Assembly: GCA_000004985.1 (NCBI GenBank)
Contig: GG738921.1
From: Naegleria gruberi
Taxonomy: Eukaryota
DNA: 64,000 nucleotides
Reading direction: 5' to 3' (one strand)
How positions within the stretch are numbered: the stretch's first letter is position 1; the number at the start of each line of letters is the position of its first letter. Both the position numbers and the translations under genes were made by a program. Positions 1-63,277 of this stretch are shown piece by piece. The notes below the pieces were generated by a model, which saw only the letters and a program-made list of their open reading frames with translations, ran no database searches and was not told where the DNA came from.

Positions 1-1654
1 AATTTTAGCCTCGTCGTATCTACCTTTTAATTCCTTAAAGGATGACTCTATTTTTGAGTAGTCTATCAGTAACTGGGTATATTGTACCTTGATACTCTCC
101 TTTTCCTTGTCATCTCCATTCTTTAAACTCAAATTTTTAAACTCCTTTTCATAATTTTGAACAAATGCTTCCAGCTCTCGTCTCTTTCTAACTTCAATGT
201 TTAACCTTTGTTCCATGTCATCGTACTCTGCTGTTAGAATAGCCATTTCCTTTAGTGTTTGTTCCACACTTTCTTGCTTAATTTTCTGCACTTGTTCTTC
301 TGTATATATCACTATTTCTGGTGGTGGTGAGGTAGACATATCCTTCCTCTCAACAATTGTGGTCTTCTCCTCAACCTTAAAGTCTGTCAAAAAATATGGA
401 TCCAAAGGAGAGAATTGAGGTGGTTGGTTACACTGTTTGTCTTTTGGTGTAGATTGCTCAATCTCCTCAAAGTTTCTGGTTTCAGTTTTTACAATTAACT
501 TTGGTGTTGCAGGTCTATCATGGAGCTCAATCTTTGGAAGATCGAAAGAGGTGTTGACTTCTGGTTCTTGAATTTTGATCATTTCGGATAAACTTGAAGG
601 TTGGTCAGAAATTGATGACGTAGAAGTAGTTGAGGAAATTGATGAATTTGATACATTTGTTTTAATATCCTCTCCTTTTTCCAATAGATATTCCAAATTT
701 GTTATTGCTGTTTTGATATCTTCATTTTCTTCTCTTTTCAGTTTCTTTAAACATTTGATGATGGTGTCTCGGTTGAAAATATCTGCCCTTTGTTTTTGAA
801 GATTGTAAACTGAAACTAAGGCTGAGCGTTTTGTTTCAATATTTCCTTGATAGGAAACGTCATCCAAATACTCCTCAAACAATCCATATGATACAATTCC
901 GATAGATCCGTTGACATTTTGAATTTCCTCAAGACAACCTCTGCAAGATGATGATATCGAGTCAATTATTGAGAAGGTTCCTTTCAATAGAGGTTTTAAC
1001 AATATAGCGTTCAATACCTCAAAATCCTCATCCAACAACCTAACAATCGATACAATTACATCACACGAAGCCTTGACGATTGAAGACCTTAAATCCGAAA
1101 GCTGCAAAACTCATTATACAACACAACATTATCCTATAACTTACCATAATCGATAATGGTTCTTGAATAGATATGGCAATTTCAAGTGCTTTTTTCTTTG
1201 ATATTGTTCCTGAAGTGAGTACATCATCCAACTCTTGCAGACAATCTAACTTTGTTGACCAATGTGTTTCCAGTGATTGGAGACTCGTTATGCAACCCCT
1301 CTCAGTCTCTGTTATATTTTCTGGTTCAATATCTATCACTCTGCTCGAATTTATATTTTGATGATTATCAAAGGCTCCGAAGCTAGCTCCCTCAATTAAA
1401 GGACTCTCCTAAAACAATTCCTTAAATACACCAAAAACATAACTTCAACTTACCGATGATTCATCCAGTGGAGAATGATCAAAAAACGACTGTGCAGTTG
1501 CACTCTGATTTCTACTTATTACAAGTAGTCTCGATTTCAATTCCTCTGATGATGAGGGCGTAGTCATGCTGACTGAGGAGGACGTTATTTTTTTGATTAA
1601 ATAATTTCGCGCCCAATTTATTGTATGTTGTTCATATTCCTGGCCGCTGTTCAT
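1..1654 (-). CDS. Multi-exon gene with its 3' end off the window; exons 1454..1654 (ATG at 1654), 1145..1408 and 1..1101; unknown helical N-terminal part, Ser/Thr-rich middle and coiled-coil C-terminal region
   Basis: Manual minus-strand translation is open through all three exons. Introns 1409..1453 (45 nt, GTAAGT...TTTTAG) and 1102..1144 (43 nt, GTAAGT...TTTGCAG) restore the frame between track ORFs 1445..1654 and 1061..1339. An in-frame TAA lies directly upstream of ATG 1654. Confidence 0.6.
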
Positions 1655-2425
1655 TTACATCAATAAGATCCATCACACAACCTCAAAAGAAGAAGTGAGA
1701 AAGGACATTGGGTTGTGATGGAGTATATTGCTTAGTAAAAGGCTTGAATTTTGATTCAACTTTCAAAATAGTAAACCTTAATGAAAATATATTTTGTAAC
1801 AACAAACCACTTGCTCACAATGAGATTGATAATAAAATCATTTCCAATAAATTAGTATTATTGCAACAAATTGACCAATTAAAGCCCATAAAAAGAAAGG
1901 GCAACATTGATAGAGAAGAACTTGAAATGTTTATTTTAATCGACCATCTGCCTTCTTCAAGAAAGGTTTCCGATTACAGTGTGGTTGACCTCATTAAAAT
2001 TTTATAAACGAAACCTCTTTGGAATTTCCCTCTTCTTTTCCCGTATGTCAGTGCACACAGTTTGACCGTTTATCGTTCGTTGTATCTTTAAAATAAAAAT
2101 TGGCGAAAGCAATCATCACTTTATATTGACAAGGAACGAGTGATTCACTAGTTGACGACAATTTGGTCAGTTCATGAACAATACTCAACAACAAAATAGC
2201 ACAAACTTTTCATTTAGTTTTATAGTGAGAGCATATTGTCAATATATTCAATTCCTCCCTCTTCAACCTTCTCAATCATCATACGCTAAGCTATGAATCA
2301 CACTTTTTCAAATAATAATATTAATAATACAAGAAGAAAATTCATCAATCATCACAATAATAGTGTAGTATTACTTTAAATTAATACTAAGAGAAAAACA
2401 AAAAACAGACATACAGAGAGAGAGA

Positions 2426-4612
2426 ATGGGACAAAATCCTTCTTCACCCTCTCAGAATAATAGCAATCATCTCGTTGCTCATAATCATCATCATCATCAA
2501 CAGCAGCAACAACAACCCCATCATCATCACCATCATCAACATCAACAGTGTGATGTCTTACCGAATTCAACTCATCTAATAGCAGACATTTCAGAGGAAG
2601 AACTTACAACAGATTCAACCTCGGCAACAACACCAACATCATCAACCATGACAGCTTCTCTCTCATCAAATCTTATATCGAGGAGAAGATCCTCTCTCCC
2701 CCATAAATTGAATGACCATAGTACAATGAGTGGAGAACATGATGAAACGAAACGATCCCTTGGTAAAGTATTCAAAAGTGCCACACATTTAAACGCTCAT
2801 GAAGATATTGAGAATTATTCATTGGGAAAACAATTGTGGGAGGTTGAAAAAGCAAGTAATAGTTGTAGTAGTGATGAGAGTCAGCAGCAGCAGCAGCAAC
2901 AAGACTCCCATCACGAGAGTCCAGCAATGATAATATGCCAGACTCCAAGAAATACGAAAATTTAAATATCAAATCGAAACGAAACAATACTCTACCACTA
3001 ACAATAACTGCTAAGGAGAATGAATCACCAGTTCATCGCTCGAATACTCATCCTCATCTTTCCTCTCGCAATTTTCAAGATCACCAACAACAACCTGTAA
3101 CATATTCCAATAATCTCAATACTCCAAATTCTGCCACCTACAAAACTTCCCAGAAATTAATCAAACTAAAGCCATTTTCTACACCAGATTTGAAAAGGAG
3201 TGCACTTTTAAATAGTAGGAACAATCAAGAGGAAGTAAGTGTATTTAATTTGATTTCTAATAGTTTCGAATAATTTCGAATAGATGAATGGAGTAGATAC
3301 AGATACTTTAACACCTACAGTGAGTGACGATATTTCATTTAATTCATCATCTGTCTATTCTCCACCACAACATGCCAATTCTTTCAGAAATAGTGTCCTC
3401 TCAACAACAAGTAGTGCCAGTGGAGGATCCAACAATAATCACAATAATAGTCTCATCAATTCTCTTTTCCCATCTCTTCCGGTTGACAGGACTAAAATGA
3501 CTGATGAGGAATTTACTGTCTACAAGGAGGTTGTCAGTAAACCAGTTTATGAAAAAATTCTGAAAAGTAAACCTCTGACAGCTAAATGTGGATTCAATGA
3601 AGAGTATATGAAAGAGTTTGCTTTTGAACTTTCTGATGAGGAAGAATTGAAAAATACCTATCTCACAACAGACTGGGTTGAAACAGCAAAACTCCTCCAA
3701 AGAACAAGAAGTATCGACGAGACCACTCTCAATCTTGACCCAAAAACTCTACTCGAACCAATAATTAATACAGTTTCTAAACGTGATTCTCTCTCCTCTA
3801 TTGAAGAGGAAGTGAAGAAAATTGTAATGGAAGAACAAGAGGTTCTCAAACAAGAAATCAAAATCAAGCTAATAATTACTGAAATTGCAAATGCACCTAC
3901 AAAAACTCTGAGACAATTTCTTTCTCCTGTTTTGCACAAGATGAATGTTCTACCAGAGATTGGTTGGTTTCACTCTGCTATTCTCGTAGGGAAGTGGAGA
4001 CTTGACTTTAATGATAGTAGTGTAGTAATACCGAGAAAGCTTGTTAGTCAGGCTGCTGTTATTACTACAGACATTGAAACAATTAGTACATTGGAGGATC
4101 TCAATAGAGTGATTGATGGCATGTCGAGATGCATTTGTAAATGGAATAGAAATATAACGTATAAACAAACTGGAGGAGATAGAATTAACACAGGGAACTG
4201 TCAGGATTTTGTGGAAGATTTGTTGGATAGTATTGGAGTTAAAATGAATCTTTCTGGAAGTATGAAGAAATTTGTAAAACGTTTGAGAAAGACAGGAAAG
4301 TGTTCCCTTGTCTTTGAAATGGATAAGAGATTCAGAGAATATTTTGGAATGGAATCTAAACGGGTGAAGTTCAAATCACACGAACAATTAGATTTGTTTG
4401 TGAGAAAATTACTTGACAAGTGTCCAAATTTTGCTCAAGAATTCAATGATGAATGGATACTCTTACAAAGTTTTGATAGAACCTACTGGTTGAAACACAT
4501 TACGTACACTCACATTGAAGAGTATAAACCATGCAAGGTCATTAGAGATAATAAGGGAGTTTCCGATTGTCCATTTCACGAACCCGAGTTCACTAACTTG
4601 CTTAAAGACTAG
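2426..4612 (+). CDS. Poly-His/Gln and Ser-rich protein with a C-terminal LRAT/HRASLS-like (NlpC/P60 superfamily) domain; 49-nt intron 3235..3283; unresolved frame switch near 2925-2940
   Basis: ORFs 2426..2965, 2935..3273 and 3284..4612. The last two join in frame through GTAAGT...AATAG. The C-terminal part has a His box (GWFHSAILVGKW) and an NCQDFV motif about 75 aa later, as in the LRAT/HRASLS NCEHFV catalytic-Cys motif. The first two ORFs overlap in different frames with no usable intron. Confidence 0.5.
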
Positions 4613-4753: not shown

Positions 4754-4966
4754 ATGGAACAAGACAAAACAACCAAAGACACAACAATCAACAATAACAT
4801 TGCAGAGGATGATTTTGAAGACGAGGAGATTCCTTCCGATGAATACTACGACAGAATGTATCAACAAAATGTTCATAAATATTTGAAAGAAAAGGAAGAA
4901 TTTTACAAAAAGCAACAAGACAAGTTAGCTTGTTCCGAACCACAAGAAAAAAAGATTAAAAAGTAA
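4754..4966 (+). CDS. Small acidic hypothetical protein (70 aa)
   Basis: ATG preceded by an A-rich run (aaaaaatgg); ORF with charged, lysine-rich composition and no antisense gene. Weak support. Confidence 0.3.
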   Translation: MEQDKTTKDTTINNNIAEDDFEDEEIPSDEYYDRMYQQNVHKYLKEKEEFYKKQQDKLACSEPQEKKIKK

Positions 4967-14326: not shown

Positions 14327-15520
14327 NNNNNNNNNNNNNNNNNNNNNNNNNNNNNNNNNNNNNNNNNNNNNNNNNNNNNNNNNNNNNNNNNNNNNNNNNN
14401 NNNNNNNNNNNNNNNNNNNNNNNNNNNNNNNNNNNNNNNNNNNNNNNNNNNNNNNNNNNNNNNNNNNNNNNNNNNNNNNNNNNNNNNNNNNNNNNNNNNN
14501 NNNNNNNNNNNNNNNNNNNNNNNNNNNNNNNNNNNNNNNNNNNNNNNNNNNNNNNNNNNNNNNNNNNNNNNNNNNNNNNNNNNNNNNNNNNNNNNNNNNN
14601 NNNNNNNNNNNNNNNNNNNNNNNNNNNNNNNNNNNNNNNNNNNNNNNNNNNNNNNNNNNNNNNNNNNNNNNNNNNNNNNNNNNNNNNNNNNNNNNNNNNN
14701 NNNNNNNNNNNNNNNNNNNNNNNNNNNNNNNNNNNNNNNNNNNNNNNNNNNNNNNNNNNNNNNNNNNNNNNNNNNNNNNNNNNNNNNNNNNNNNNNNNNN
14801 NNNNNNNNNNNNNNNNNNNNNNNNNNNNNNNNNNNNNNNNNNNNNNNNNNNNNNNNNNNNNNNNNNNNNNNNNNNNNNNNNNNNNNNNNNNNNNNNNNNN
14901 NNNNNNNNNNNNNNNNNNNNNNNNNNNNNNNNNNNNNNNNNNNNNNNNNNNNNNNNNNNNNNNNNNNNNNNNNNNNNNNNNNNNNNNNNNNNNNNNNNNN
15001 NNNNNNNNNNNNNNNNNNNNNNNNNNNNNNNNNNNNNNNNNNNNNNNNNNNNNNNNNNNNNNNNNNNNNNNNNNNNNNNNNNNNNNNNNNNNNNNNNNNN
15101 NNNNNNNNNNNNNNNNNNNNNNNNNNNNNNNNNNNNNNNNNNNNNNNNNNNNNNNNNNNNNNNNNNNNNNNNNNNNNNNNNNNNNNNNNNNNNNNNNNNN
15201 NNNNNNNNNNNNNNNNNNNNNNNNNNNNNNNNNNNNNNNNNNNNNNNNNNNNNNNNNNNNNNNNNNNNNNNNNNNNNNNNNNNNNNNNNNNNNNNNNNNN
15301 NNNNNNNNNNNNNNNNNNNNNNNNNNNNNNNNNNNNNNNNNNNNNNNNNNNNNNNNNNNNNNNNNNNNNNNNNNNNNNNNNNNNNNNNNNNNNNNNNNNN
15401 NNNNNNNNNNNNNNNNNNNNNNNNNNNNNNNNNNNNNNNNNNNNNNNNNNNNNNNNNNNNNNNNNNNNNNNNNNNNNNNNNNNNNNNNNNNNNNNNNNNN
15501 NNNNNNNNNNNNNNNNNNNN
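14327..15520. other. Assembly gap (1194 N)
   Basis: Run of n characters; all track ORFs with long X stretches are artefacts of this gap. Confidence 1.
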
Positions 15521-15522
15521 TT

Positions 15523-16716
15523 GGAATAGCATTAGGTTTTGGAATATTCTTTGTGTGGAAAATTGTAAAGAAATTGAGAAAACTGAAAAGTAAGGAGAAG
15601 GCAGAGAAACAAATTGAAGAAAAACTTTTAGACAAGCGACTTATTTTCAATATGAATGACGAGGAGGATGAATATTATGAGGGCTCCACACCAAATATTG
15701 AAAGAAGCAAATCATCTTATGGGAAAGTATCTGAAAAGGAGTTAGTTTCTTCATTGATTGACAGTGAAAAGAAGAAATCAAAACATTCTTTCAGTTTTTC
15801 ATCCTCTTACATTATTCCAATTGAAGACATATCAATTATTAAAAAGATTGGAGAAGGAGGCGCAGCTAATGTATATTATGGTACATGGACCAATATTAAA
15901 GTGGCTATCAAGTCACTCAAGATTGACAGTTTTGATGATGATTTTGAGAATGAAGCAGCCATCCTCAGTTTAATTAGACATCCAAACATTCTGACATTCT
16001 ATGGAGTATGTTTGACTGATAAGAGTCGATATATTGTGACTGAATATATGGAAAATGGCTCTCTAGACAGGTATATATTTTTGAATAAGAACAGAGCATT
16101 GAATATTGACCTATTCAAATCAAATATTGGAATTTTGTGTGGAATTGTGGATGGTATGCAATATTTACACTCTCTTAAACCTTCAATTATTCACAGAGAT
16201 TTGAAATCGAGTAATATATTGTTGGACGAAAGAAATACTCCAAAAGTTTCTGATTTTGGTCTTGTTAAAGTATTGGGAAACAATACAATCAGTCAAATTA
16301 CAAAAGGAATTGGTACAGTGTATTATTTAGCTCCAGAAACATTCATTGCTGAACATCAAATTGAAAATAAGGAAGAGGCAACCAAGTTGGACATTTACAG
16401 TTTTGCAATAATCATGTGGGAATTATTCTTTCGAATGAGTCCTTATCATCATGTGAAAAATCCATTCAAAGTGCCTCAAATGGTTGTCAATGGAGAAAGA
16501 CCTCAAATTCCCTTCAATATTGAAAATGATACGGAAATCAAAGAATGGCTTTCAATTCAAGCATTGGAAATTTCATCGTCTGACAATTCTTTCATTAATG
16601 GTATTAAGAAATACTTCTCACTCATTCTCCAATGTTGGAATCAAAATCCATTACAAAGACCTACATTCCTGACAATTAGAAGAGAATTGGATGAGATTTA
16701 CAATCTAATCGGTTGA
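15523..16716 (+). CDS. TM segment plus TKL-type Ser/Thr protein kinase domain; probable 3' part of the receptor-like kinase that begins at 13841
   Basis: Immediately after the gap the frame reads GIALGFGIFFVWKIVKKLRKLK (end of TM helix plus basic stop-transfer). Then IGEGGAANVYYG (glycine loop), VAIK, HRDLKSSNILLD, DFGLVK and YLAPE. Stop at 16714-16716. Confidence 0.75.
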   Translation, partial: GIALGFGIFFVWKIVKKLRKLKSKEKAEKQIEEKLLDKRLIFNMNDEEDEYYEGSTPNIERSKSSYGKVSEKELVSSLIDSEKKKSKHSFSFSSSYIIPIEDISIIKKIGEGGAANVYYGTWTNIKVAIKSLKIDSFDDDFENEAAILSLIRHPNILTFYGVCLTDKSRYIVTEYMENGSLDRYIFLNKNRALNIDLFKSNIGILCGIVDGMQYLHSLKPSIIHRDLKSSNILLDERNTPKVSDFGLVKVLGNNTISQITKGIGTVYYLAPETFIAEHQIENKEEATKLDIYSFAIIMWELFFRMSPYHHVKNPFKVPQMVVNGERPQIPFNIENDTEIKEWLSIQALEISSSDNSFINGIKKYFSLILQCWNQNPLQRPTFLTIRRELDEIYNLIG

Positions 16717-16876
16717 ATGCAATCTATCCTCAATCCTTTTTTATTTCATAGATTGTCCGAGTTCAAATTACAAAACTTTACAAAATCAAATGAAGTGTCG
16801 ATATGATTCATGCACAGATGAACTTGGAATTTGGGTAATTTTCAAAATAGCACAAAAAAAAACAAAAATAAAAAAA

Positions 16877-18074
16877 ATGTTCTCACTTCTCAAGAAGATA
16901 ACTGGTTCTGGTCAACAGCAACAACCAATCATTTCTAGAAAGATCAATAGTGAAGCAAGACTTTCGGAGAATGATATGAAGGATTTGGAAAAGTTAACCA
17001 ATGAATTAAATTCTAAAATTTCATCACCCAATTTGAGAGCCTTGTTGGCTATTTATTCAAAGAATATTGATGAGATCAATGGCTCGGAAGTTGTGTTGGA
17101 TCAATCGATTGCGGATTTGGAAAATAGATTCTTATCGGTTCATAAAGAACAAAAGTCTTTGATTTTTGCTCATCCTGAATTGTCCAACTCGAATGAAGAT
17201 GAAGAAATGGTCGACGGAGAAGATATGTATGAATATATTAAAAAGAAGAGTATGATCAAGAATGAATTAAAGAAATTGAATAGTGAATTTTCCAAATCCA
17301 AGATAACCTATTGTCACTATTTCTGTAAAGAAGAAACTGATTTTATTCAAAAGAATGGAAACAAAAAGGATGAATGCAAATCTTATATTTTACGACCAAG
17401 TGTTGCTTTTGATCCGTTTATTGTAACCGGTGAAGATTTTCATTTCAGATTGGCATCTTCGTTTCTTAATCATGCAAATGCTGGATTTACTTTGAATGAA
17501 GTGACATACGTTTGTAATCCATACAACTTGAAGAAATTCAATGAAAAGAAGAGAGAATTGGCTAAACGTCACAATTTTATGCTCGATTCAATGAAGCCAC
17601 TCATTCTATTCCATGGTAACAGATTGGAATCAAACTATGATAGTATTATGAAAACTAATTTTTCAATTTCAAAGGTTGGTTCAAACACTGGTAATTTAGG
17701 ATATTACGGAAAGGTAAGTTTACAATATATTGACAATAATTTAACACTCTAAAGGGAGTTTATTTCAGTTCCATTCCTTCGTATAGTGCTGCATATGCAG
17801 GTACTAATATACTTCTTGTTTGTTTGGTGTTTACAGGAAAGGCATATCCCCTCCAGCAAATTACAATGGGTTGTCCAAGACAGGAAGGTGAGTTTTCAAA
17901 TAATTTGAACAATAATTATTTAACAATTCCTTATTTGAAATAGGTTACGATTCACACACATCCCCTGATGGCTATTCAGAAGTTGTGATTTTTGATGAAG
18001 ATCAAATATTACCAGTATGTTATTATTATTTAGAACTCTATCTATATCTAATCGTTTCAATTTCATTACTTTGA
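16877..18074 (+). CDS. PARP-like ADP-ribosyltransferase (catalytic domain at C-terminus); exons 16877..17713, 17755..17887, 17944..18074
   Basis: LILFHGNRLESNYDSIMKTNFS (HG motif), spliced GYYGK|GVYFSS.. (GKGIYFA-like), LLVCLVFTGKAY and YSEVVIFDEDQILPVCYY (NEYIVYD-like end). Introns 17714..17754 (41 nt, GTAAGT..AAAG) and 17888..17943 (56 nt, GTGAGT..AATAG). Only the stated splice sites keep the PARP motifs in frame. Confidence 0.6.
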
Positions 18075-18293: not shown

Positions 18294-21200
18294 TCATTCC
18301 TCTTCTGCTTCTTCTCTATTGTATCCAAATGGATGACAAGTTTTTCTACTCATTAAGGCAAGACAACAATTTACAACATATTCAAAGTAAGGCTTTCCAT
18401 CTACATGGATTAGTTTGGGTTGATAGTAGGCTCTTTGTACTGCATTCCTTCCTGAACTTGCAAGTGAATGAAATGTATTTTTGAAAACAAAGAATGATTC
18501 TGTGTGGAAATCAGAATTTGCAAATATTGCTTTAACTTTGATTGATTCCAATTCGTTTTCTTTGTCATTGTAATCAAATGAACATAGATATAGGTATAAT
18601 GATGAGTTTTCTCTAAAATCCTTAACCTCTGTTAATTATCGCGTAGAGAAATACAGTGTTTGTAACTAATTTCATAAAACTACTTACTATTGGCAACACC
18701 CAAGTGATTGAAACAAGCTGAAAACTTGGCTCCAAATGCTGTGAACTTATCTGAATAACAACATCTATCAATATTATCAGGACTAACACGAAATGTCAAA
18801 GTATGGATGGATAATGGAAACTCTGTTGCCCATCTATGAACAATAGGAGGATAATTAGTTGAGGATGATTCCTTTCTTCCAACATGGAACATTTCAATAT
18901 TATTGAAAGGTTTGAATGGTTCTTCCTCAACTTTCTTCATCCCAACCACAAATTTAAACTTGAGAAAATCATCGTCATCTGTTGAGTAAGCGGCAATATG
19001 GGTCTTATCAAGAAATATTCCATAAGATGCTTTAGGCATAATGAATTTTCTACTGTGAACAAGATAGGATTGAGGTTCTAGATCAAAATTACAAATAAAA
19101 AAGTCGAGTCTTATTCTATCAAATACCTGTTGCTTATTCTCTACTGGAATTGTGGAATTTAGTGTTAAAAATACTGTAGAATTGCCCAAACATTCATCTT
19201 CATCATCTGTTTCCGATTAGACAATTAGAAAATTAATAAAACGTAACATACCTGGCAGAAGCTCCACAACCCACTCGTGTCCAAACTGTATGAAAGGTTC
19301 AGAATAATAGCTAGTATTAAAAGGGCCAGTTTTTGGTACCTTAACATCTGCAATATGAATGGTATAATCTTTTTTCTGTGGTGGAATATTTTCCTGCACA
19401 AATTGGAAAAGGTCTTCTCCTATAGGTTTCAATATTGGCTTAATTTTTGTTTCTGTGAACTCTGTATCTATTTTTGCTTTCTTTTCTGCAATAAGTTCTA
19501 AGGTTTTCTTAGAAGATTTGAAAAATTCATTGGACATAACTAGGTTGATAAAGTCCAAAATGCTATCATTTTGTGGGAAATGATCCACTACTGCAATAAC
19601 AGTATTAATAATAACATGTCCAGAAAAATTACAAATTTCTTGTTTCCCATCAATAAACTGATGTAAAACTCTACTGATCATCTTTTGTGTGCAATTTTGA
19701 ATATTATCATATATCAAACATTGTATGATACACTCAAAACAATTGAAAAAACTGGTGAACCTCCCTAAATCCATTAAAATATTAGCAACAACACAAAATT
19801 CAGTTTGAGATAATATTTTAGGTATTAACTTTTCCAGATCGTGAATATTATTTTCCTCAAATATAATTTTTCCTTCTTTCCATAGTACATCCAAAAGATC
19901 AAATATTCCATAAAAGTCCACACTAGTTTCATCTTGAAAAGCAGTCAGAAAAAGTTTACAAATTTCGGCTTTCGAAATGTCTAAAAAAACATAGCTGGAT
20001 AGTTGTTCAATAGCTAAACATGCATCTTTCATTTCTCTTAAATATATTCTTTCTCTTACATAGGAAAGACATTGATCAATATCATTATAATCAATTGTTG
20101 GGTAAATCCGTTTTGTGCTTAGTGGTTCTTCTTTCATTATAACGGTAACCCTGTTAACTTCTTGTTCAAAAAGAGAATAATCTGCGCTCAATACTCTAGA
20201 GTCAAAGCATTCCAACAGTAAAACTCTACAATTGGTGAATTGTCTGAAATATTGTGTCGATTCTTGTGTAAGGCCGTCATTGTACTCTATTTTTAGGATA
20301 TCCAACTCATCAGATAGGGGAATAATATCCTTAATAAATTCATCTTGAATCTTACACCTTGAAAACACTAATTCTTTTAAAATTTTTGTAGAGAGTAGCC
20401 AGTCTTTGAATCCAATTTCTGCTCCAGTAATCTCTCCGACAAAAGAAAGATTAGTAATGTTACTTGGAAAAGTGCACTCTTGTAAGTTAGTAACTTGCTC
20501 ACCAAAGCATACTTTCAATGTTGTCAAATTCTTGAATTCTCCAAGATATTTTAGATATTCAACATTCTCGTTGGTTACCCTTACATTAAGAACCTTTAGA
20601 GAACTCCTAGGTAAATGAGGAATAACTGAAGCTTCAATGGCCTCACCTAAAACTTCTTCCAGTTTGCAATTTACTATTGCTTGGATATTTTGATGAATAA
20701 TTTTATCTTCGAACTGTTCACCTTGCAGATCCAATATTTTTAAATCTTCACAGTCATGGAGAAATGAATGGTTCCTCCTCAATATCAATATAAGTATCAG
20801 TATGGTACAGCAGTTTTTCCAAATGTTGTCCTATTAAAGCCTTAACAACATTAAAACAAATTATTTCGTTAGTACCTCCATAAATTTTAAGAATTCTGAG
20901 TTGTAAACAACTTTTCAATTGTTCCAAAATATCTTCTTTTACAATTGTAAATTGAAAATTTCTAGGAAAGTCTAATGTTAATTTAGACAACTTAGAGAGA
21001 TTACAGAGACAACCTAGCAATGTATCTAACTCATATGAGGGATCATATTCATTAGTGAAAACAACATTCAATCTTTCTAATGTTCTTGAAAGGATGCTCA
21101 AATTCTTTTGGAGATTCAATATTGTTTCATCAGAAGTTGATTTCCATACCACCTTGAGCTTTTTCAAATGGGAGAATGAATTAGATGAAAATACTGAAAA

Positions 21201-22020
21201 GTATGAACCAGTTATATTTGATAGTGTGTCTCGAGCAAAGAGGGAAAATTTTTCAATCTTTTGTGAAACATTGGAAAGTACTAATGACATAATAGAATCA
21301 TCAAAATAACTAGGGTTGATAACCAAAACTGTTAAATTTGGACATTGTTGTGTGATATCCTCAATATTCTTGCGTGTTAGTGGATAGCTAGAACGAAACT
21401 CTGTCAAAGATTGAGGAAACCCAATCACGGTTTGATCCATTTCTTCTTCATGGAGGTTTAGTTCAGATAAAAGGCTTATCAACTCGAGAGTTTTTAAATT
21501 TTTAAACTCTTTCAACAAGTGAAAATATTCAGTTTTAAGATTAGTAAGTGTCAATACTGTCAAAGATTCCAACAATGGACTTGCATTCATTATCCACTCA
21601 ACAATGAAACTTCCAGAAATACAAGTTGCAGCTCTCAACCTCAACTCTTCCATTGACAATCGTCCAAGCTCACACAAACCCACATCTAAAAAAGCATATA
21701 TTAATCGACCATTCATAAATAATAATAATAAATTGATAACAATTACCTGTTAATGACGAGAACTCCAAAGAATTGAATGTAAACAAATCAATAACCTTCA
21801 ATCGTTTCATCTTGATCAGTAAATTATCCACAACTCCTCCGATCCTATGATTACTCAATCCGATGTGAATAAAGTATTGGGTCTTGTTATTCAGGAAATA
21901 ATACCAGATCCACTCGGCAAAAGTCTTTGAAATAAATCTCATCTGCAACAAGTGGTATTCATTGAAAAAACATAGCAAGTGTTCGGCACACAAATCACAA
22001 GGTAAATTCTGAATTTTCAT
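18294..22020 (-). CDS. Very large F-box-like / leucine-rich-repeat protein; exons 21747..22020, 19252..21685 (internal frame break near 20754-20788), 18689..19206, 18294..18629
   Basis: N-terminus NLPCDLCAEHLLCFF..FISKTFAEWI is F-box-like. Long LRR-like region with internal duplication (KTEYFHLLKEFKNLKTLEL versus NVEYLKYLGEFKNLTTLKV). Introns 21686..21746 (61 nt), 19207..19251 (45 nt, GTATGT..AACAG) and 18630..18688 (59 nt, GTAAGT..AACAG) verified by frame continuity. Track ORFs 20754..21716 and 19217..20788 overlap by 35 nt in different frames. Confidence 0.55.
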
Positions 22021-36511: not shown

Positions 36512-37492
36512 ATGGGTAATGTCATTCCTGTTAACACTCTCTTCTTGGGTATCGATGGAGCTGGTAAAGTAAGTAACATGAAATCTTTACATTTCGTCTA
36601 ATGTGTAAACTAATGTTTAAACTAATGTGTGTAAACTAAACTTTAGACCACCATCATCAACACTGGTATGAACAAATTCAAACAATTAAAACAAGAGCAA
36701 ATTGATGCTATACAACCAACTTTGGGACATGATTCAAAGAGATTTACAGTGGAAGGAGTTGAATTTATTTCATGGGATGTAAGTATTTGAAGAATTGAAC
36801 AAGTTTTCTAATAGTAGAAATTGTCATTGATTGAATGGTGTTGTTGTTTTGTTCATTGACTGCTCCAATAACAATAATAATAACAAATGTCATGTTGACG
36901 TGTAAAAAACTCGAAATCTTTGGATGATTTGAAAAAATATTAAAAAATTCGTGATGATATGAAAAATGGATTCGATTCTTGGCCATGACATGAATTTTTC
37001 TCACTATTTCTCACCACCATTGACAATACCACAACAACACATTGAACAATTCAATCACGACCACTTTGTTGCTTCCTATAGTTCCCTGGCAAGGAACAAC
37101 TTCGTTCCACATGGACTTCCTACTATAAACATGCTCAAGTCATTGTCTTTGTTGTTGACAGCTCTGATAGTGATGAACGTTTAGAAGAAGTTAAGGAAAT
37201 TCTCCACTCCATCATTCAAAATGTCCAATTACGTGAATGTTTGTTGTTGATTTTGGGTAACAAACAAGATTTGAATTCCACTAGAAATTTGGATAAATTG
37301 AAGGATACTCTCGGATTAGGAGGTAATTTAAGTGGATTACGTGATCGTACTTGGAAGATACTTACTTGTACTGCCAAAACTGGAGATGGTTTGGAAGATG
37401 CTTTCAAATGGTTGTCAACTGAAACAATGAAGGCCTATAAAAAGAGAGAAAGCAAGAAGAAGGAAGAAAAGAAGGAAGAAACTAAAAAATAA
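36512..37492 (+). CDS. Arf-like (Arl) small GTPase with Lys/Glu-rich C-terminal tail; exons 36512..36568, 36647..36778, 37082..37492
   Basis: MGNVIPVNTLFLGIDGAGKTT (G1 split by intron 1), WD|FPGKEQLRSTWTSYYKHAQVIVFVVDSSD (G3/switch II), LGNKQDL (G4), CTAKTGDGLEDAFKWL (G5). Introns 36569..36646 (78 nt) and 36779..37081 (303 nt) both GTAAGT..AG. Confidence 0.75.
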
Positions 37493-41601: not shown

Positions 41602-42484
41602 TTAAACTTTATTATCAGCTCCGTAAGGTTGATTTGGTTGGGCATAATAATTAGGTTGTGGATCCACAACTCCTGGTTGACCATATCCTTGATTAGCAGT
41701 AGGATATGGTTGACCATAACCACCTTGTGGTTGTCCATAGCTTTGATTAGGATTATAAGGTTGAGCTGTTTGATTTGGATTATACGGTTGACCATAACCT
41801 GGTTGACCATAAACCTCTGATGATGGATTGTAATAAGGTTGTTGTTGACCTACTACTGGTGGTTGTGTTTGATTTGAATAATAAGGAGTTGAAGTGTAAC
41901 CACCTGGTTGTTGAACTGCCAAATTTGGTTGCATTTGGCCAACTGTTGTCGTGGTTGATTGAACAGTTGTGGTTGCAACTGGGATTGGAGTGGTGACAGT
42001 TGTGGCAGCTGCCAAATCACTTCTTGACATACCATCTGCGATATTCTTCATGATAATGAACATTCGAATACCTGCAATGACGGACGAAATTCCAGCAATG
42101 ATCAATACAATGCCAATAACACCCAAAACAATTGGAGTGGTAATTCCAGAGCATGATGTGCTGGAATTGGTTGTCACAGCAAGACATGCTATAATGAATA
42201 CAAAGTTTAGTCAAGTTTCGAATAATTTCAAAAATTGATTATTAGAAACAAGATAATGAATTAGTTTTCAACAGATCAACAAGAAACCTACCTGCATACA
42301 ATGCACCAACGGCAATCGCAGCAATTCCTAGAGCAATACCAATCAAGATGGAAACAACTCCTGAGATAATTGTGGCAAGTGGTTTAGTTCTTCTGTTTCC
42401 AATAACTATTCCTCCTCCTACGTGATGATTTACATGATGATGGTGATGATGACCGTGTCGTCCATGGTGATGGTGGTGAGCCAT
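41602..42484 (-). CDS. Two-TM protein with His-rich N-terminus and Gly/Gln/Pro/Tyr-rich (YGQP-repeat) C-terminus; exons 42292..42484 and 41602..42188
   Basis: MAHHHHHGRHGHHHHHH...; two TM helices, one per exon. Intron 42189..42291 (103 nt, GTAGGT..TTATAG) joins ORFs 42242..42484 and 41602..42177 in frame. Confidence 0.55.
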
Positions 42485-44373: not shown

Positions 44374-45513
44374 TTAGTTGTATTGATGTTTTGCAGGTGA
44401 TGCCATTCGAATAGGAGCATCTGGATTCAATTGATAATCTGTTTGTAAGAGTGGATACAGTGTAATTGTCTTTCTGGTACACATTGAAATAATTGGGAAA
44501 TACATGACAGATTGTGAGACTAAATCCTGAGTTCCAGTAATTGCTGATGCAATGTGAATTCCATTCTTGAAAAAGTTGACCTGTTTGGCATCGTAATCTA
44601 TAATGACAGCAAATCGATCACCAACAGAGATCTTTCCAACAAATTCAGAACCTACAGTTCCATCAATAAAGTCGCCAAACATTTTGAATGATTTGTTTTC
44701 GAGAATGTAACCAACTCCAGAGTTTCTTTCAACGAATTGAGCTATGGATTTGTCATTATTGAAATCTTCATAATCAGTTCCAATACCAAATGCTATTGTT
44801 AATTGATGGAGGTCAATGTGTCAATATTTCAAATATAGTAAATTTCCAATATACTTACCAACATTCCATGCATTGCCACACAAGAAATATTCTTCAATAA
44901 CCATCTCATATCCTTTAAATCCAAAGTAAAATTGAGGAGATAGTTCTGATAAATCCTTAATCATTGGATATTTGGATGCTTTAAATGCATACCAAGTTGT
45001 AACGTTAATATTTCCAACAGTTCTCTCTCTATTAATGACCTTTTGTTCCTCAACATCAGATGCCTTGTCAAAACACAACTTTTTCATTTGCATCAACACT
45101 GAACTATACTTGATTGCATTTCCCTCTCTCAAAAAGAGCATTTCCCTCAAATATCGATCCAATTCCTTCTCATTCATTGAATTGACCAACGAAACATCCA
45201 AACCACTACTAATAATCTTTGAATTCACTTCATCAATAAATCCATTCATCATACCCAACAATCTATGTTTCCAAATAGTATTTCTATACGCAGCAACATC
45301 ATCCTCTTCATCATCACGATAATTGGAAGAATTCAAACAACCTCCCAAAACCAAATGATAATAAAATCGATTCAAACAAGCAACATTCATCAATGTATTC
45401 TCACAACAATACCACAGAACATTTACTTGATTATCGAGTGGGAGTTCCTGGAATGGAATTTTGTATAACCATTCACCATCAGCAATTTCCAATGTTGTTG
45501 TTGTTGTTGACAT
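44374..45513 (-). CDS. F-box / SPRY-domain protein (FBXO45/Fsn-1-like architecture); exons 44859..45513 and 44374..44792
   Basis: N-terminal F-box-like LYKIPFQELPLDNQVNVLWYCCENTLMNVACLNRFYYHLV. C-terminal SPRY core ..VGDRFAVIIDYDAKQVNFFKNGIHI... Intron 44793..44858 (66 nt, GTAAGT..AATAG) joins the two track ORFs in frame. Confidence 0.65.
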
Positions 45514-47788: not shown

Positions 47789-48543
47789 TTAATACAATTT
47801 ACATTCTGATAGAGTGGCATTGTATGATCCACATCTTGGAATTAAATTTTCATCCCATCCCATGCAACTGTTTGGAATATACAAACAAGATTGTGCAGGA
47901 ATACATCTCTCTGGCGAAAGTGTGTACAAATTACTTGCCTTTCCAACAATTGTTCTTCCATTAACAACTGTAGTTCCATAAAAACATTGTTGTCCAGGAT
48001 AACCAGTTCCAAAAACATAAAACAAAGCAACAGCACAACCAAAAACAAAGAGAATTGGAGTTAAAATCATCAAAATACGTAATTTAGGTTCCAGATAGGA
48101 TGTTCTTTGCCAATAAATCAAAATTCCAAGAGGAACCAATTGAATTATCAAGTAAACCATCATGGCCAAATTACCCCATAATTTCAAATCCGATTCTCTG
48201 TATGTAAATACACCCAACAAGATGAATGTTACCAAACCAATTAATATAACAATTGCTGATGAAGTATATGTAGCTATTTTAATCTATCCATATATATATA
48301 CATATAATAATTATGATCACATCATCATTATCATCCACATATAATAATAACAATAATAACAATAATATCAAACAAATATATCAAACATTAATAGCAATCA
48401 TCCGATCAATATTTAAATTATCATCATCATCAATAATAATATTAATAATACAACAATAATAAATGTAAATATGATCCAATCTATATAACAAAATAATAAC
48501 ATACAGCCTTGCTATTCTCATCACCATAAAGTGGATTCTCCAT
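47789..48543 (-). CDS. Small multi-TM protein with Cys-rich C-terminal segment; exons 48505..48543 and 47789..48283
   Basis: Exon 1 MENPLYGDENSKA (ATG at 48543, A-rich context). Intron 48284..48504 (221 nt, very AT-rich, GTATGT..GGATAG). Exon 2 is in frame with ORF 47789..48235 and has three hydrophobic helices. Confidence 0.45.
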
Positions 48544-55331: not shown

Positions 55332-56586
55332 TTAATTTTCCTTGTCAATCAAGGCTTGATTCACAGCCATTACCACTCTGTAACGAGCTTGATTCTTGAG
55401 AACCTTTTCAACGGCTTGAGTTACATTATCAAGAGTAGTTAATTCAATTTGTGGCTTAATATTGTGATCAGCAGCAAATTGCAACATTTCCTTCATCAAA
55501 TCGGGAGTGGCACTTGCTGAACCAACAATTGCACGATCTTTGAGGATGAGAGGAAAAGCTGATGCTTTATATATGCCAGAATCAGCTATTTAAATTGTTA
55601 TTTAATTAATTTAAATTAATAATTAATAATTAATAATAATATTAGGAAATTAAAAGTAATTAAAAGTAATTGGAATGCAAAACAAGTTAAATTACTTACG
55701 AAGTCCTAACATGACCATCTTTCCGAATGGTTTCAACATTTGGATAAACTTATCATTATCAATATCAGTGCTAACAGTATTGAGAATCATGTCAAATTTG
55801 CATGAAAGAGATTTTGCATCATTTTCTTCTGTGTGGACAAAGAATTCATCAGCTCCAAAGGATCTGCATTCCTTCTCCTTATTTGCATTTGTGGAAAGGG
55901 CTACAACATGGAATCCCATCTTTTTAGCAAATTGGAGAGCTAAATGACCTAATCCTCCCAATCCCAATACTGCTACTACAAATTCATTTCGTTTCGAATA
56001 AGGACTTTCACGATAGTAGTATAATGGTGAGTAAACTGTGGCTCCAGCACACAACAATGGACTGGCATCGACAGATTTCAACTTGTCTGGAATTGGAAAA
56101 ACAAATCTAGCATCCCAAACAACACCTGTTTGAAAACCTCCTCCAATTGGTGCCTTATCGAAAGGTAAGGTCTTGTCACACAAATTTTCGAAATGATTCT
56201 TACAAGTTGGACATTCGAAACATGAAGTGTAGTGCCATCCCATTCCAACACGATCTGATACCTTAATCTTTGTTTCCTTCTCGACTTGCTCACCAACATG
56301 ACGAACAATTCCAACAATTTCATGACCAGGAATGCAACCAACATTATGCAATGAGTGAATATCTGATTATTTAATAATATTTGATTTGGATAACTACTAT
56401 TACTATTGAAAAATACTAACCTGTATAACAAATACTACTGGCAATTACTTCGACAAAAACCTCCAAAGGACCCAAACTTTTCACTTGTTGCTTGATTGGG
56501 CGAAAGGAGAATTCCTTTCCTTCTTCCTTTTCTGCTACTGCATAACCAGAAACTTGGATTGGTGGATTGATTTCCTTGATAGACAT
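55332..56586 (-). CDS. Zinc-dependent alcohol dehydrogenase of the cinnamyl-alcohol-dehydrogenase (CAD) type; exons 56421..56586, 55700..56362, 55332..55585
   Basis: GHEIVGIV, catalytic and structural zinc Cys clusters (CFECPTCKNHFENLC), Rossmann VLGLGGLGHLALQFAKKMG. Introns 56363..56420 (58 nt, GTTAGT..AATCAG) and 55586..55699 (114 nt, GTAAGT..AAATAG) verified by frame and by the conserved C-terminus ..RYRVVM... Confidence 0.8.
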
Positions 56587-57091
56587 GGCGATAGATACTT
56601 TTCTTGTGGATTTCTTTTTTTAATTGTTGGATTTAAACTAATGCAGAAGAATTCTTGCTTTTAAATGTTACAAATTTGGAGATTGTACATTCTTGCGACT
56701 TTATACGTGCATTCATACATTCGCACGAGGATGTTATTTATTTAATATCCACCGTTGAAACTTGTTAAATTTCCATACGAAAGAAACACATTATCTGACA
56801 TGTCTTTGTTAAGATTCATCTCATTTATGAAAGTTAGAATGACCTGTGAAAGGAAGACGAGGAGAATGGATATTTTGTGTTGTAATAACACATTTACAGT
56901 TACAATCCAGAATTTAAGGTCCGCATTCGATATCCTTTAGGAGTCGATTAGATCAGCAGCGGTTATTTATCTTTTCAAATTGACCACATCAACAATATCC
57001 TGATTTTATCATACTCTTTCCAGAGTGGATACAAGATTTCGTTATTCGATTCCCTTATGTTTTACCCAGTTTTTTCATTTTCTGCTTTTAC

Positions 57092-58089
57092 ATGGTTGCA
57101 TTCGTGTTGGGTTGTTTGAAATTAGAGGAGGCCAATAAGAATACCTGGTATTATAGAAGGTTTATTGCTAAAGAGACAGTTGATAATATTGATAAGGAAA
57201 CTTCCAAAACCAAATTAATATCACCAAATAATGAATTAGAAGAAGAGCAAGTTCAAGAGCCAATTATTGTTAAGGAATCCATGTTACAGAAATTCAAGAA
57301 TAAGTTTAACAATTTCAAAAGTCATGAAATGTTATCATCTCCAATTCCATTGCTGACATGTTTCCTCTACTTGATGTTGGGATCGAAACAAATCTTATTT
57401 GACGAATGTTTACCTCTCTTTTCAGTTACACCAAAAGAGTTGGGAGGATTAGGATTATCTTCATATCATCTTGGTTGTAAGTTTACAATTTTTGTAATTC
57501 TATAGAAATTAACTTTTACTTTCACATTTCAATAATTAACATGCAAATAGTAACTGGTGGATTTTTAGGATTTATCATATTTATGAATCAGGCATTCATC
57601 ACACCACGTGTTATTGCCAAATTCAGTCCATTGATTTGCTATAGGGTGAGTCTTGTTGTGGATATTGCATTCAATGTAATCTTTCCTGAAGTTATTTGGT
57701 TAATGGTTAGTGAACATGATCCAATTTGGAGACATGTATTGTTCTGGTTTGTTTTCGTATTCATTCTCCTATTAAGACAAGTTTCTAATGGGTACAGTTT
57801 CTTGGGAACTTTACTCATTACAAATAACAGTGTAACCCGAAAGAATTCTGGAAAATTGAATGGAACTTCTCAATCATTGGTTTCACTTTCGAGAATGATT
57901 AGTCCGATTGTTGGTGGGGCTATCTTTGCTAGCTCAACAGCTGTCTCTAAATTTCCAATTGACCATCGCACGGTGTTTTATGTTGTTGGTATAATAAGTG
58001 TAATTATGTTTTTCCTTTCATTGATTTTGAAAAAGTCAATCAATAAGCCAAAGGAAGAAGTTAAAGTGAATGAGGTAGCAAAAAAGTAA
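57092..58089 (+). CDS. C-terminal half (TM7-12 plus central loop) of an MFS transporter; no N-terminal half present upstream; exons 57092..57476 and 57551..58089
   Basis: Intron 57477..57550 (74 nt, GTAAGT..AAATAG) joins ORFs 57092..57505 and 57541..58089. Six predicted helices with MFS-like loop motifs. The upstream 500 nt abut the ADH gene on the opposite strand. Confidence 0.45.
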
Positions 58090-59118: not shown

Positions 59119-59157
59119 ATATCCTTTCGAATAGATTTTATTAGCACCAAACTATTC

Positions 59158-59982: not shown

Positions 59983-60178
59983 TTTTTTTTTGACAGTTTA
60001 CTTGAGTGAATCTATTCGATCAGCATGAGATTTTTATTCGATTTAGAAGTAGATTATGGAGAGTAAAAGTGCTCACGCAATCAATTCGCAGTAGTAGCAG
60101 TAAGTAGTAAAAGTCAATAGAACGCACGCAATTACTTGCTTTAACAATAATAAAAACAAGTTGCTGAAATCAAAAGTA

Positions 60179-60265
60179 TCCGATGAGACGGAATCGAACC
60201 GCCGACCACAGGATGACAGTTTTTCTTGCTACAGTCCCATGCTCTACCAGCTGAGCTATCATCGG
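60179..60265 (-). tRNA. tRNA-Tyr (anticodon GUA) with a 14-nt intron at the canonical 37/38 position
   Basis: Minus-strand CCGATGATAGCTCAGCTGGTAGAGCATGGGACTGTAG[caagaaaaactgtc]ATCCTGTGGTCGGCGGTTCGATTCCGTCTCATCGGA; acceptor CCGATGA/TCATCGG; matches eukaryotic tRNA-Tyr consensus. Confidence 0.8.
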
Positions 60266-60404
60266 TTGTATTTATTTATTAAAAATACCTTTTGTAAACT
60301 ATAAAAATATCTAAGGTATTAAGGTAGTTTGTTAAAGAGTGGCCGAGTTGTGTATTTGTGCAACCATGTATTGACGAACTTTATTAACGAACATTATAAA
60401 AAAA

Positions 60405-61375
60405 ATGCCACAACATGTCCATCATCACTCCCTCTCACCTTCAAGACCAGTCGTCGTTATTGATAATGGCTCGGGAATGATTAAGGTAGGATTTTCCTGT
60501 AGTGATTCTCCCAGAGCCATATTTCCAACAATAGTAGGGCATAAAAAAGAGTCATCAGATCAAAAGAAGGAAACAACCAACAATGATCTCAATAGTATCG
60601 GATCATCATTTGTTGGAGAGATGGCAATAGCTCATCGAGAATTATTGGACATAAAAAGTCCCATGGAAAATGGAATAATTTCAAATTTTGATGATATGGA
60701 AAAGATTTGTTATCATCTCTATCCGGAGTTCTTGTCACAGAACCAAGTTAGAATCCAAAGTTGGTGAGAGAAAAAACAACAGAAATATTTTTTGAAAAGT
60801 TTAAGGCCAATCAGTGATGGGACTTTGTTCGAGTGCCAGATCAGATGGTGTTGTTTTGGATGCTGGTTATACGAAATCATATGCTGTTCCAATTCTTGAA
60901 GGAATTGCATTGCCACATGCCATTCAGGTGATGNNNNNNNNNNNNNNNNNNNNNNNNNNNNNNNNNNNNNNNNNNNNNNNNNNTTCACAAAGAGGAGGTT
61001 TGAATTGTCAGATGGAAGCAAAGTGAATTTTGGAGAGGAATTAATGTCATGTCCAGAAGCTCTATTCAACCCACAGTTAATCAAAGAAGGAGAAGGAATT
61101 CACAAGATTCTCGTCAATTCCATTTTCAATTCAAATGCAGAAATCACAAGACAACTCTTTGCCAATATTGTCCTTGTCGGTGTCTCAACAATGTTTGAAG
61201 GTTTTCCCAATCATTGAATTGGCTCCTCTCTCTGTAAAAGTGAAAATCCTTTCATTCCCCGAAAGAAAACTCTTCCTGGTTTGGAGGTTCAATTACGAGC
61301 TCTCTTTCAGAATTCCACAATATGGCCATTCACAAAAAGGAATATGAAGAAGTTGGACCTAGAATTGTAATGTAG
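60405..61375 (+). CDS. Divergent actin-related protein (ARP); interrupted by a 50-N gap and at least two single-base frame breaks
   Basis: [30 protein letters not shown], ..[36 protein letters not shown], then in three different frames: [53 protein letters not shown].., ..[20 protein letters not shown].. and ..[33 protein letters not shown]. These blocks are colinear with actin. Confidence 0.6.
60934..60983. other. Assembly gap (50 N) inside the ARP gene
   Basis: n run. Confidence 1.
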
Positions 61376-61473
61376 AAATGTTTTTAATGCAAAATATGAG
61401 TGCAATGTATCAATATTTCCTGTTATCTATTTCAGACTTACCATTTTCGTTCAAGTTTTTACAAAATAAAAAA

Positions 61474-63277
61474 ATGGCGCAAGATAACACCACGGATGAA
61501 TTGAATGAATTTTTTAATGATTTATTGGAGAGCAATGTGGAAGGAGGAGATAATCCCCTCCTACAGCAACAAGAACAAGAACAACAAGATGATGAATTAT
61601 TGCATCCTATATCATGTTCCTATTGTCGGAAAAACCATCGGTACGTGTGTGGTTCTTTAGAATTATAATTAATAATATTAAATTAAATTAAATAGAAAGT
61701 GTGGTATGTAATTTATCAGCTGATGCCGATTGTGACCAGAATAATAATTACATCATAAATGATGAAATAGATAGAAAGAAGCCTTCATGTACTAATTGTG
61801 TGAGAAAGGGAGTTGTTTGTAACTATTCGGATCCATTAAAGAAGGGAAGAAAAAAGAAATCGGAAAAGGAAGTGGAGGAAATTCATGAAGAGAAGAAGAA
61901 AAATTCTTCAAAGAAAGCTGTTAGTAGTAGTAGTAGTGGAAGTAGTCATCATTCAACAACAACCTCTTCAGCAATTCCCTATAAAACAATTCATATCGAT
62001 TCCGATGATATTCTATTGAAAAGATCAACATTTGATTTATTTGGTCTATTGTACGTTGTTAGTAATTGTTTAAATAATTATTGACGATTGGAAATAGAGA
62101 TATACCAATTCAACAATCAGATTTTGAAAATTATTACAATATGGCTCAGAATGGAGTGTTAAAGGATGATGTTATTAATGCAATCTTATTTGGTTGTCAG
62201 GCTCTAATTGACCAAAGATTAGGAGATAAGGAAGCATCGAAATTATCATTTAATAAGGCAAGGAAACTCATACAACCATATTTTGATAATATTGATGATA
62301 TTAATGTAGGATGTGTCTACTTTTTATTTTGTTCGTTTGAAGCTTCAAATGCAAATTATAGAAAGGTAGCTCTATATTATAATATTTTGAAAACCTTTGT
62401 GGATGAAATTGTCAAAATGGAAAATTCCAACATCAAGTTGACAACACAAATGAAAAGGTTAAAAAGCAGGACTAGATTTATTGAAATGACTATGAGTACC
62501 TCTCAAGATATAGACTGTAATAATCCTCTAGCAATTGCCAAAATGTTTCCAAGACTGGTCTATGTTGCCACAGGAGTTGATGGATTTGCTGAACTATGTG
62601 CAAAATTAGAACATTTAGATAAGGACAGAATTGAAGAACATTTAGCTACTGTTGATTCTGTGTGCATATTCATGAACAATCATATGAGACAAATGGACGA
62701 AAGTGGTGATCGCAAAAATGTAATTGATTTAATGGGAAATATTGTTTCGAATGGAATGAAACTGGCTTCCTACCTCACAGTAGATAATGACAATTGGGAG
62801 AAGATAATGACTTACTCGACCAATATTACTACAGCAACAGAGAATCCACTCTTTGTATTTCTTCCAGCGGCTGTTGTGTCTCATGTTGCCATGGCAGCTA
62901 AACAACATTTGAGACTGTGGTCCTTAATCAGATTGGGAATGGTTTCAGATTTCTTCCAAGGAAAAAACACTCTCTCACAATTAATCTATCAAAGTTATAG
63001 AGCTCTCAGTATTCTCTCCACTCGATTCGATCGCGTCCAAAAATTCTACTCTGATCTCTATCAAGAATTGGAACACTTCATTAAGGAATACTTTACCCAA
63101 CAAAATCAACTTGATTCCACCCTTCTCAACAATACTACTATTGTTATTGATAACAACACTGCAACAACTACAAATGAACCTTTATTACCTGACCTACAAC
63201 CACCACCACCAGAAAGTTCATTCACAAGCATGCTTGATGATTCTTTCTTTTTCGATCCACCACAACATTTTGAATAA
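61474..63277 (+). CDS. Fungal-type Zn(II)2Cys6 binuclear-cluster transcription-factor-like protein; exons 61474..61651, 61696..62050, 62098..63277
   Basis: CSYCRKNHRYVC ... SCTNCVRKGVVCNYSDPLKKGRKKK (Cys cluster followed by basic region); large C-terminal regulatory-domain-like ORF. Introns 61652..61695 (44 nt) and 62051..62097 (47 nt, GTACGT..AAATAG) join three track ORFs in frame. Confidence 0.5.

Follow-up and report, generated by a model that had tools for sequence, protein, structure and literature searches.

The DNA analyzed here is a stretch of 64,000 nucleotides (nt), referred to below as the window, from contig GG738921.1 of the Naegleria gruberi assembly GCA_000004985.1. Its genes, which include those for a TACC-domain protein, a PARP-domain protein, an ABC-B half-transporter, an Arf-family GTPase, a zinc alcohol dehydrogenase and a Zn2Cys6 transcription factor, are interrupted by short segments that begin with GT and end with AG. 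These segments are very probably canonical U2-type GT-AG spliceosomal introns of nuclear protein-coding genes of N. gruberi NEG-M: their removal restores open reading frames (ORFs), conserved domains and orthologous protein sequence, and Pfam matches to PARP, Arf, RFD and Zn_clus run across the resulting junctions. The G+C content of the window is approximately 33%, in agreement with the published value for the N. gruberi genome (PMC8296547), and the sequence contains two runs of N (14327..15520 and 60934..60983), being that of a draft scaffold.

Introns were enumerated using a codon-usage score trained on long ORFs: GT..AG segments joining coding-like open frames were listed, and each junction was then settled by donor quality, domain continuity and homology. 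The resulting set contains 22 introns of 41, 43, 44, 45, 45, 46, 47, 49, 55, 56, 58, 59, 61, 61, 66, 67, 74, 76, 78, 103, 114 and 303 nt (median approximately 60 nt, mean approximately 72 nt), excluding a few longer unverified candidates such as 48198..48504 (307 nt). Eight introns measure 41-49 nt, eleven measure 55-78 nt and three are longer (103, 114 and 303 nt). Retention of any of the 21 introns tested leads to a premature stop, and none of these (0/21) is a stop-free multiple of three. Three candidates with weak donors (4924..4963, 60760..60805 and 16712..16751) were dropped, as separate genes or frameshifts in a damaged actin-like gene fit better.

All 22 introns have GT at the 5' end and AG at the 3' end. 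Among the first 20, the donor has A at +3 in 19, A at +4 in 15, G at +5 in 19 and T at +6 in all 20, while the base preceding the 3' AG is T in 13, C in four and A in three (the acceptor is thus mostly TAG). Intron G+C content is approximately 24%, compared with approximately 33% for the window. When GTAAGT hexamers on both strands were considered, 11/25 passed a strict ORF-joining test, versus 4.1% of all GT hexamers (binomial P = 1.4e-9; about 10-fold). True donors that fall outside this strict filter (those of a short first exon, the 303-nt intron and the Arf first intron) bring the total to 13/25. No polypyrimidine tract is visible in the introns, and no small nuclear RNA (snRNA) genes were found in the window. 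From established splicing knowledge, the strong 5' splice sites near GTAAGT (consensus GTRAGT) would be expected to pair with the complementary 5' end of U1 snRNA, and each short AT-rich intron, with its TAG, CAG or AAG 3' end, would be recognized across the intron (intron definition).

A sequence-only reading of this DNA had interpreted nine segments as ultra-short spliceosomal introns with AT-rich bodies. This interpretation largely holds: all nine are GT..AG segments of 41-49 nt with GC contents of 0.09-0.30, their removal joins open frames, and reading through them leads to a stop or a frameshift. For eight of the nine, the coordinates given describe the junction best; the ninth, 61652..61695, has the right acceptor but was mis-delimited, as a better donor lies at 61641. 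The strong GTAAGT or GTATGT donors attributed to these segments are present in seven, whereas the donors at 62051 and 61652 are GTACGT and GTTCTT, respectively. Although the window does contain a cluster of introns at 41-49 nt (8/22 in our enumeration), the count originally given for this class, 13 of 24, could not be reproduced (nine were listed).

The N. gruberi NEG-M genome and its gene models (JGI/GenBank) were reportedly presented in the genome paper of Fritz-Laylin et al. in 2010. Five gene models from the window (four spliced and one single-exon) match deposited N. gruberi proteins at 100% identity, all on one 207,235-base pair (bp) scaffold. Exact matches include the SPRY protein EFC37188.1, the zinc alcohol dehydrogenase EFC37192.1 and the Arf-family GTPase EFC37141.1, while the single-exon product of 827 amino acids (aa) is an exact match to EFC37184.1. 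The deposited proteins imply exactly the introns 22979..23022, 23721..23766, 36569..36646, 36779..37081, 44793..44858, 55586..55699 and 56363..56420 (44, 46, 58, 66, 78, 114 and 303 nt when ordered by length). Because the spliced models are identical to deposited proteins, 7/22 introns are already in the public annotation, and in that sense the introns are already known. Protein clusters of the N. gruberi matches contain genome-derived members only.

The Arf-family GTPase gene (plus strand) has a 78-nt intron at 36569..36646 (GTAAGT..TTTAG) that splits the P-loop, GAGK|TT, and a 303-nt intron at 36779..37081 (GTAAGT..CTATAG) whose junction is spanned by the Arf domain; it is the three-exon product that matches the annotation exactly. 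On the minus strand, the SPRY-domain gene has a 66-nt intron at 44793..44858 (GTAAGT..AATAG) and the zinc alcohol dehydrogenase gene has introns of 114 nt at 55586..55699 (GTAAGT..AATAG, GC 12%) and 58 nt at 56363..56420 (GTTAGT..ATCAG), both genes giving the deposited product when spliced. An ENA metagenome contig (ERZ929261) is approximately 99% identical to window positions 55650..56750, introns included, and reproduces the 58-nt intron base for base. As this contig is near-identical genomic DNA with the intron retained, it is uninformative on splicing. Judging from this match, the ERZ929261 sample contained a strain very close to NEG-M.

The fourth exactly matching spliced gene encodes an ABC-B half-transporter on the plus strand and has introns of 44 nt at 22979..23022 (GTAAGT..CAAAG, phase 2) and 46 nt at 23721..23766 (GTAAGT..TTTAG, phase 1). 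When spliced, 22704..22978, 23023..23720 and 23767..24776 encode a 660-aa protein with 100% identity along its full length to the deposited "abc transporter B family protein [Naegleria gruberi]"; the next-best ABC-B matches are from N. lovaniensis, a second N. gruberi ABC-B protein (AbcB1), N. fowleri and Willaertia. As the sequence-only reading had noted for such genes, the mechanical ORF list splits this one, giving separate ORFs at 22994..23755 and 23805..24776; its first exon falls under the threshold for listing. The peptides corresponding to the two junctions (VIPI|SFQF and TTAL|AFWYGG) both lie in uninterrupted exons of N. lovaniensis genomic DNA, where the gene is interrupted instead by introns of 96 and 54 nt. 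Four introns (53, 87, 54 and 66 nt), each with a GTAAGT donor, are present in the N. fowleri homologue (P0011). For each of the N. gruberi introns at 22979 and 23721, this N. fowleri homologue has an intron exactly 7 nt farther downstream (L003 positions 10322 and 11154); in the N. lovaniensis ortholog neither is present, and two different introns lie close by. This pattern could reflect near-coincident gains, sliding or paralogy.

Support of a different kind is available for the TACC-domain gene, which lies on the minus strand and runs off the start of the window. Its introns of 43 nt at 1102..1144 (GTAAGT..GCAG) and 45 nt at 1409..1453 (GTAAGT..TTTAG) are both in phase 0, and removal of each restores the frame; an in-frame stop lies 6 nt into the second. 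A JGI metagenome contig (L005) encoding a TACC-domain relative with 57% aa identity carries a 38-nt GTAAGT..CTAG intron at the exact codon boundary of 1102..1144. Around this site, the exons are 62% identical at the nucleotide level with indels in multiples of three only, whereas the intron is 49% identical and differs in length by 5 nt. Homology with this contig also begins exactly at the predicted acceptor of 1409..1453 (AG|GAGAGTCC..).

The Zn2Cys6 transcription-factor gene (plus strand) is best modelled, on the basis of homology, with two introns around an 8-nt micro-exon, an arrangement predicted to give a canonical Zn2Cys6 motif. The first intron is 55 nt in length (61641..61695, GTACGT..AATAG, phase 2) and supersedes 61652..61695; the micro-exon at 61696..61703 (AAAGTGTG) would encode the third cysteine of the cluster; and the second intron, proposed on the same basis, is 67 nt (61704..61770, GTATGT..AATAG, phase 1). 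Both donors are consensus-like. The N. lovaniensis ortholog (P0125) reads HPISCAFCRKNHRKCDRKKPSCTNC, contiguous in genomic DNA, and the window yields this same peptide only by splicing 61641..61695, keeping the micro-exon and splicing 61704..61770, which gives HPISCSYCRKNHRKCDRKKPSCTNC. The two-intron model yields CSYCRKNHRKCDRKKPSCTNC, of which 17 consecutive residues (RKNHRKCDRKKPSCTNC) are those of a contiguous N. lovaniensis exon. With the micro-exon, the Pfam Zn_clus match scores 37.5 bits and covers the whole profile, compared with 27.2 bits when one 119-nt intron with a weak donor is assumed and 18.4 bits for 61652..61695 (below the cut-off, and second half of the zinc cluster only). 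Given the N. lovaniensis ortholog, both 61652..61695 and 61641..61699 were discarded as the junction. Downstream, the 47-nt segment 62051..62097 (GTACGT..AATAG, phase 2) is confirmed by sequence comparison as an intron: the frame is restored once it is taken out, and at the homologous site the N. lovaniensis gene carries an intron of 54 nt, also in phase 2. The 448-aa N. gruberi protein in the annotation (P0124) shares the 61641 donor and uses the acceptor of 62051..62097, jumping from 61640 to 62098 with one 457-nt intron. It skips the micro-exon and the following 280-nt exon, so the DNA-binding domain is lost and there is no zinc-cluster match.

The PARP-domain gene (plus strand) has a 41-nt intron at 17714..17754 (GTAAGT..TAAAG, phase 0), the shortest in the window. 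With this intron removed, the Pfam PARP catalytic domain (48-50 bits) is continuous over the junction GYYGK|GVYFS, while the read-through product has no PARP match. A further intron of 56 nt at 17888..17943 (GTGAGT..AATAG, phase 1), absent from the list of the sequence-only reading, gives ..PRQEG|YDSHTSPDGYSEVVIFDEDQILP.. when spliced and lengthens the PARP match. The alternative C-terminus EFSNN..YLK* (EFSNNLNNNYLTIPYLK*) was rejected as intron read-through; the true last exon encodes GYDSHTSPDGYSEVVIFDEDQILP.

A gene at 18.3-20.8 kb on the minus strand contains tandem MATH-like repeats. The first has a 45-nt intron at 19207..19251 (GTATGT..AACAG), removal of which restores the frame, and the second has a 59-nt intron at 18629..18687 (GTAAGT..AACAG) that joins two ORFs. 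The two introns occupy equivalent positions in the same phase (phase 1), which fits duplication of a domain already bearing its intron. The MATH_2 match across the 19207..19251 junction is weak (E = 0.0038), and a PDB search with the MATH-like region returned no match. Also on the minus strand, an LRR-like gene with its start ATG at approximately 22020 has a 61-nt intron at 21686..21746 (GTAATT..TTTTAG, phase 1) joining two ORFs, with no annotation match. Between these loci (20757..20830, minus strand), one ORF, LRR-like, ends at 20757 and another, LRR/MATH, starts at 20830; the two overlap but differ in frame, and the region lacks convincing splice sites. Either a frameshift, through assembly error or in a pseudogene, or the presence of two neighbouring genes could account for this.

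The remaining introns also join pairs of ORFs. On the plus strand, 31154..31214 (61 nt, GTAGGT..AATAG, phase 1) has no annotation match, 31505..31580 (76 nt, GTAAGT..ATTAG, phase 0) has a junction spanned by the Pfam DNMT1-RFD domain, and 57477..57550 (74 nt, GTAAGT..AATAG) belongs to an MFS-type transporter gene with an MFS_1 match downstream of the junction. On the minus strand, 42189..42291 (103 nt, GTAGGT..TTATAG, phase 1) has no annotation match. Finally, a gene at 2.4-4.6 kb on the plus strand has a probable 49-nt intron at 3235..3283 (GTAAGT..AATAG, phase 0) that joins a 119-codon to a 442-codon open frame; no other junction in the window has a higher combined splice-site score. Farther upstream, in a CAG/His-rich region at 2850..2970 (plus strand), there is a frame change between ORFs 2426..2965 and 2878..3270, with weak intron candidates only (such as 2856..2917, with a GTAATA donor).

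Two explanations would deny that these are ordinary introns. If the segments were assembly errors or frameshifting insertions in pseudogenes, the restoration of frame would be coincidental. The window is indeed from a draft scaffold with two N gaps, beside one of which an actin-like gene (60406..61375) shows frameshifts and an in-frame stop without splice signals, and the frame change at 20757..20830 in the LRR/MATH locus is unexplained. However, every segment has a near-consensus donor and an AG end, and 13 of the 25 GTAAGT hexamers are used in this way; moreover, the 58-nt intron recurs base for base in an independent metagenomic contig of nearly identical DNA, and diverged relatives have introns of other length and sequence at the same codon positions. 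We consider this explanation extremely improbable. Equally hard to credit is a recently spread mobile "introner-like" family in place of ordinary old introns. Such a family would fit the uniform lengths and donors of the short introns, and intron presence/absence in the ABC gene differs between N. gruberi and N. lovaniensis, but the top pairwise local score between intron interiors is 23, within the range of shuffles (mean maximum 19, highest 28), and at least three introns are at positions common to diverged relatives. As the interiors are without shared sequence, no mobile family is indicated, nor are intron families with terminal repeats visible in the window.

A more limited doubt is that some segments are unspliced, above all 3235..3283, where the downstream "exon" would be a separate gene with its own start and the upstream ORF a separate product or untranslated region. 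The evidence for this intron consists of frame and signals. The second exon starts with an ATG at 3284, so a gene start there is possible; the upstream region is of low complexity, with a second unexplained frame change near 2880-2960; and no homologue covers the junction (none was found across it in the metagenome scan, and for the gene as a whole only distant homologues of the C-terminal domain were found). Against this, a 131-codon open frame with a positive coding score stops precisely at the GTAAGT and resumes in frame after the first suitable AG, and the single-exon 442-aa product starting at 3284 is not a deposited protein either (none of the models of this gene matched one). We regard unspliced segments as unlikely and 3235..3283 as probably an intron, though the least certain of those listed. 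Beyond this junction, several points weigh against the interpretation of the segments as spliceosomal introns or against their exact boundaries. Splicing itself we infer from genomic sequence. The branch-point motif YTRAY, for which a fixed distance from the acceptor had been suggested as a check, occurs in 13/22 introns compared with approximately 10 expected from shuffles (P = 0.13) and lacks a fixed distance, a result that is either negative or underpowered with 22 introns. The PARP, 2.4-4.6 kb, LRR/MATH, 31 kb and 42 kb gene models have no exact match among deposited proteins; the deposited annotation therefore differs at those genes. Lastly, a mean of 203 bp has been published for N. gruberi introns (PMC8296547), well above the window mean of approximately 72 nt.

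A long tail together with long introns that were wrongly modelled, for instance that of 457 nt in the deposited annotation (61641..62097), could explain this gap; a literature search for N. gruberi intron lengths yielded published means only. Eight of the 22 introns lie at 41-49 nt and none below, but a single 64-kb window with 22 introns is too small a sample to establish a mode for the genome. It is conceivable, but in our judgement somewhat doubtful, that N. gruberi has a discrete minimal-intron class of approximately 41-49 nt, roughly 8-10 nt below that of N. lovaniensis and N. fowleri (51-54 nt), and that micro-exons and introns of very small size are systematically mis-modelled in the 2010 annotation, the Zn2Cys6 gene being one example. 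If such mis-modelling is systematic, the published mean of 203 bp overstates the real value.

The NEG-M annotation concerns the same organism and scaffold and implies seven of the introns exactly, but it differs at the Zn2Cys6 gene, where an exon and a micro-exon are replaced by one long intron, and at several other genes. The reference annotation thus has local errors, including a missed 8-nt micro-exon with the loss of half of a DNA-binding domain, and the last exon of the PARP gene is easily overlooked; re-annotation based on RNA-seq would mend such errors. Prokaryote-style ORF tracks fragment the genes described here. The findings otherwise have little importance beyond housekeeping, the genome being published and annotated and short GT-AG introns being expected in Heterolobosea.

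Three other loci in the window were noted. The actin-like or Arp-like gene at 60406..61375 (plus strand), which includes the N gap 60934..60983, is readable only by frame switching, has no splice signals at the frame changes and contains an in-frame stop (TEPS*NPK, compared with TEAPLNPK in actin); either the gene is a pseudogene or the sequence next to the gap is of poor quality. A Rfam tRNA match at 60179..60265 (minus strand, 54.8 bits) was missed by ARAGORN; following ..CUGU, its anticodon loop contains 17 nt in place of the 3 nt of the model, which suggests an intron of approximately 14 nt in what is probably a Tyr-GUA tRNA. The 1,194-N gap at 14327..15520 interrupts a protein-kinase-like gene (downstream ORF 15553..16716), and the six-frame ORFs listed over 13.8-15.6 kb are artefacts of the N run.

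With respect to known systems, the sequence-only reading had compared these introns with those of dictyostelids. The window does resemble dictyostelid DNA in its AT-rich composition, homopolymer-rich low-complexity protein stretches and GTAAGT-like donors, but this is the wrong lineage: its proteins match N. gruberi at 100%, followed by N. lovaniensis, N. fowleri and Willaertia. As the organism is N. gruberi, a member of the Heterolobosea, the size comparison is irrelevant, and a taxon guessed from the "feel" of the sequence proved wrong. Nor do the introns lie at the lower limit for spliceosomal introns, as had been proposed. Documented lengths include 18 nt in a chlorarachniophyte nucleomorph, 20-33 nt in Paramecium and 21-29 nt in Nyctotherus (PMC2633312), and the 38-nt intron of the TACC-domain relative, an environmental sequence, is also shorter. 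The tiny introns of ciliates and nucleomorphs are likewise spliceosomal and AT-rich, and their retention also leads to premature stops (PMC2633312). However, they measure 18-33 nt, whereas the N. gruberi introns are at least 41 nt in length and have a much stronger 5' splice-site consensus, which places them outside this extreme class; compared with a tiny-intron class of about 15-35 nt, the window has a minimum of 41 nt and a median of about 60 nt.

The closer likeness is to other Heterolobosea. The introns of N. fowleri, N. lovaniensis and Acrasis kona resemble those of N. gruberi in having GTAAGT-type donors and AT-rich bodies, and they likewise measure tens of nt. At the N. lovaniensis and N. 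fowleri loci examined, which show no synteny with the window beyond the query genes, introns are 51-96 nt in length with GTAAGT or GTGAGT donors, apart from one of 188 nt. Introns below 50 nt number 8/22 in N. gruberi and 0/9 in these two species (shortest 51-54 nt), a small sample that gives a hint only. Published mean intron lengths for N. fowleri are 126-144 bp, and N. fowleri reads were mapped using TopHat with a 30-bp minimum intron (PMC8296547); A. kona introns are reported as 9-95 bp (PMC11589745), and introns tend to be short wherever a genome has few of them (PMC3488318). In Heterolobosea, short introns are the norm, and the 41-49 nt group in the window is the short end of the compact length distribution usual for this lineage, neither a special class nor a record.

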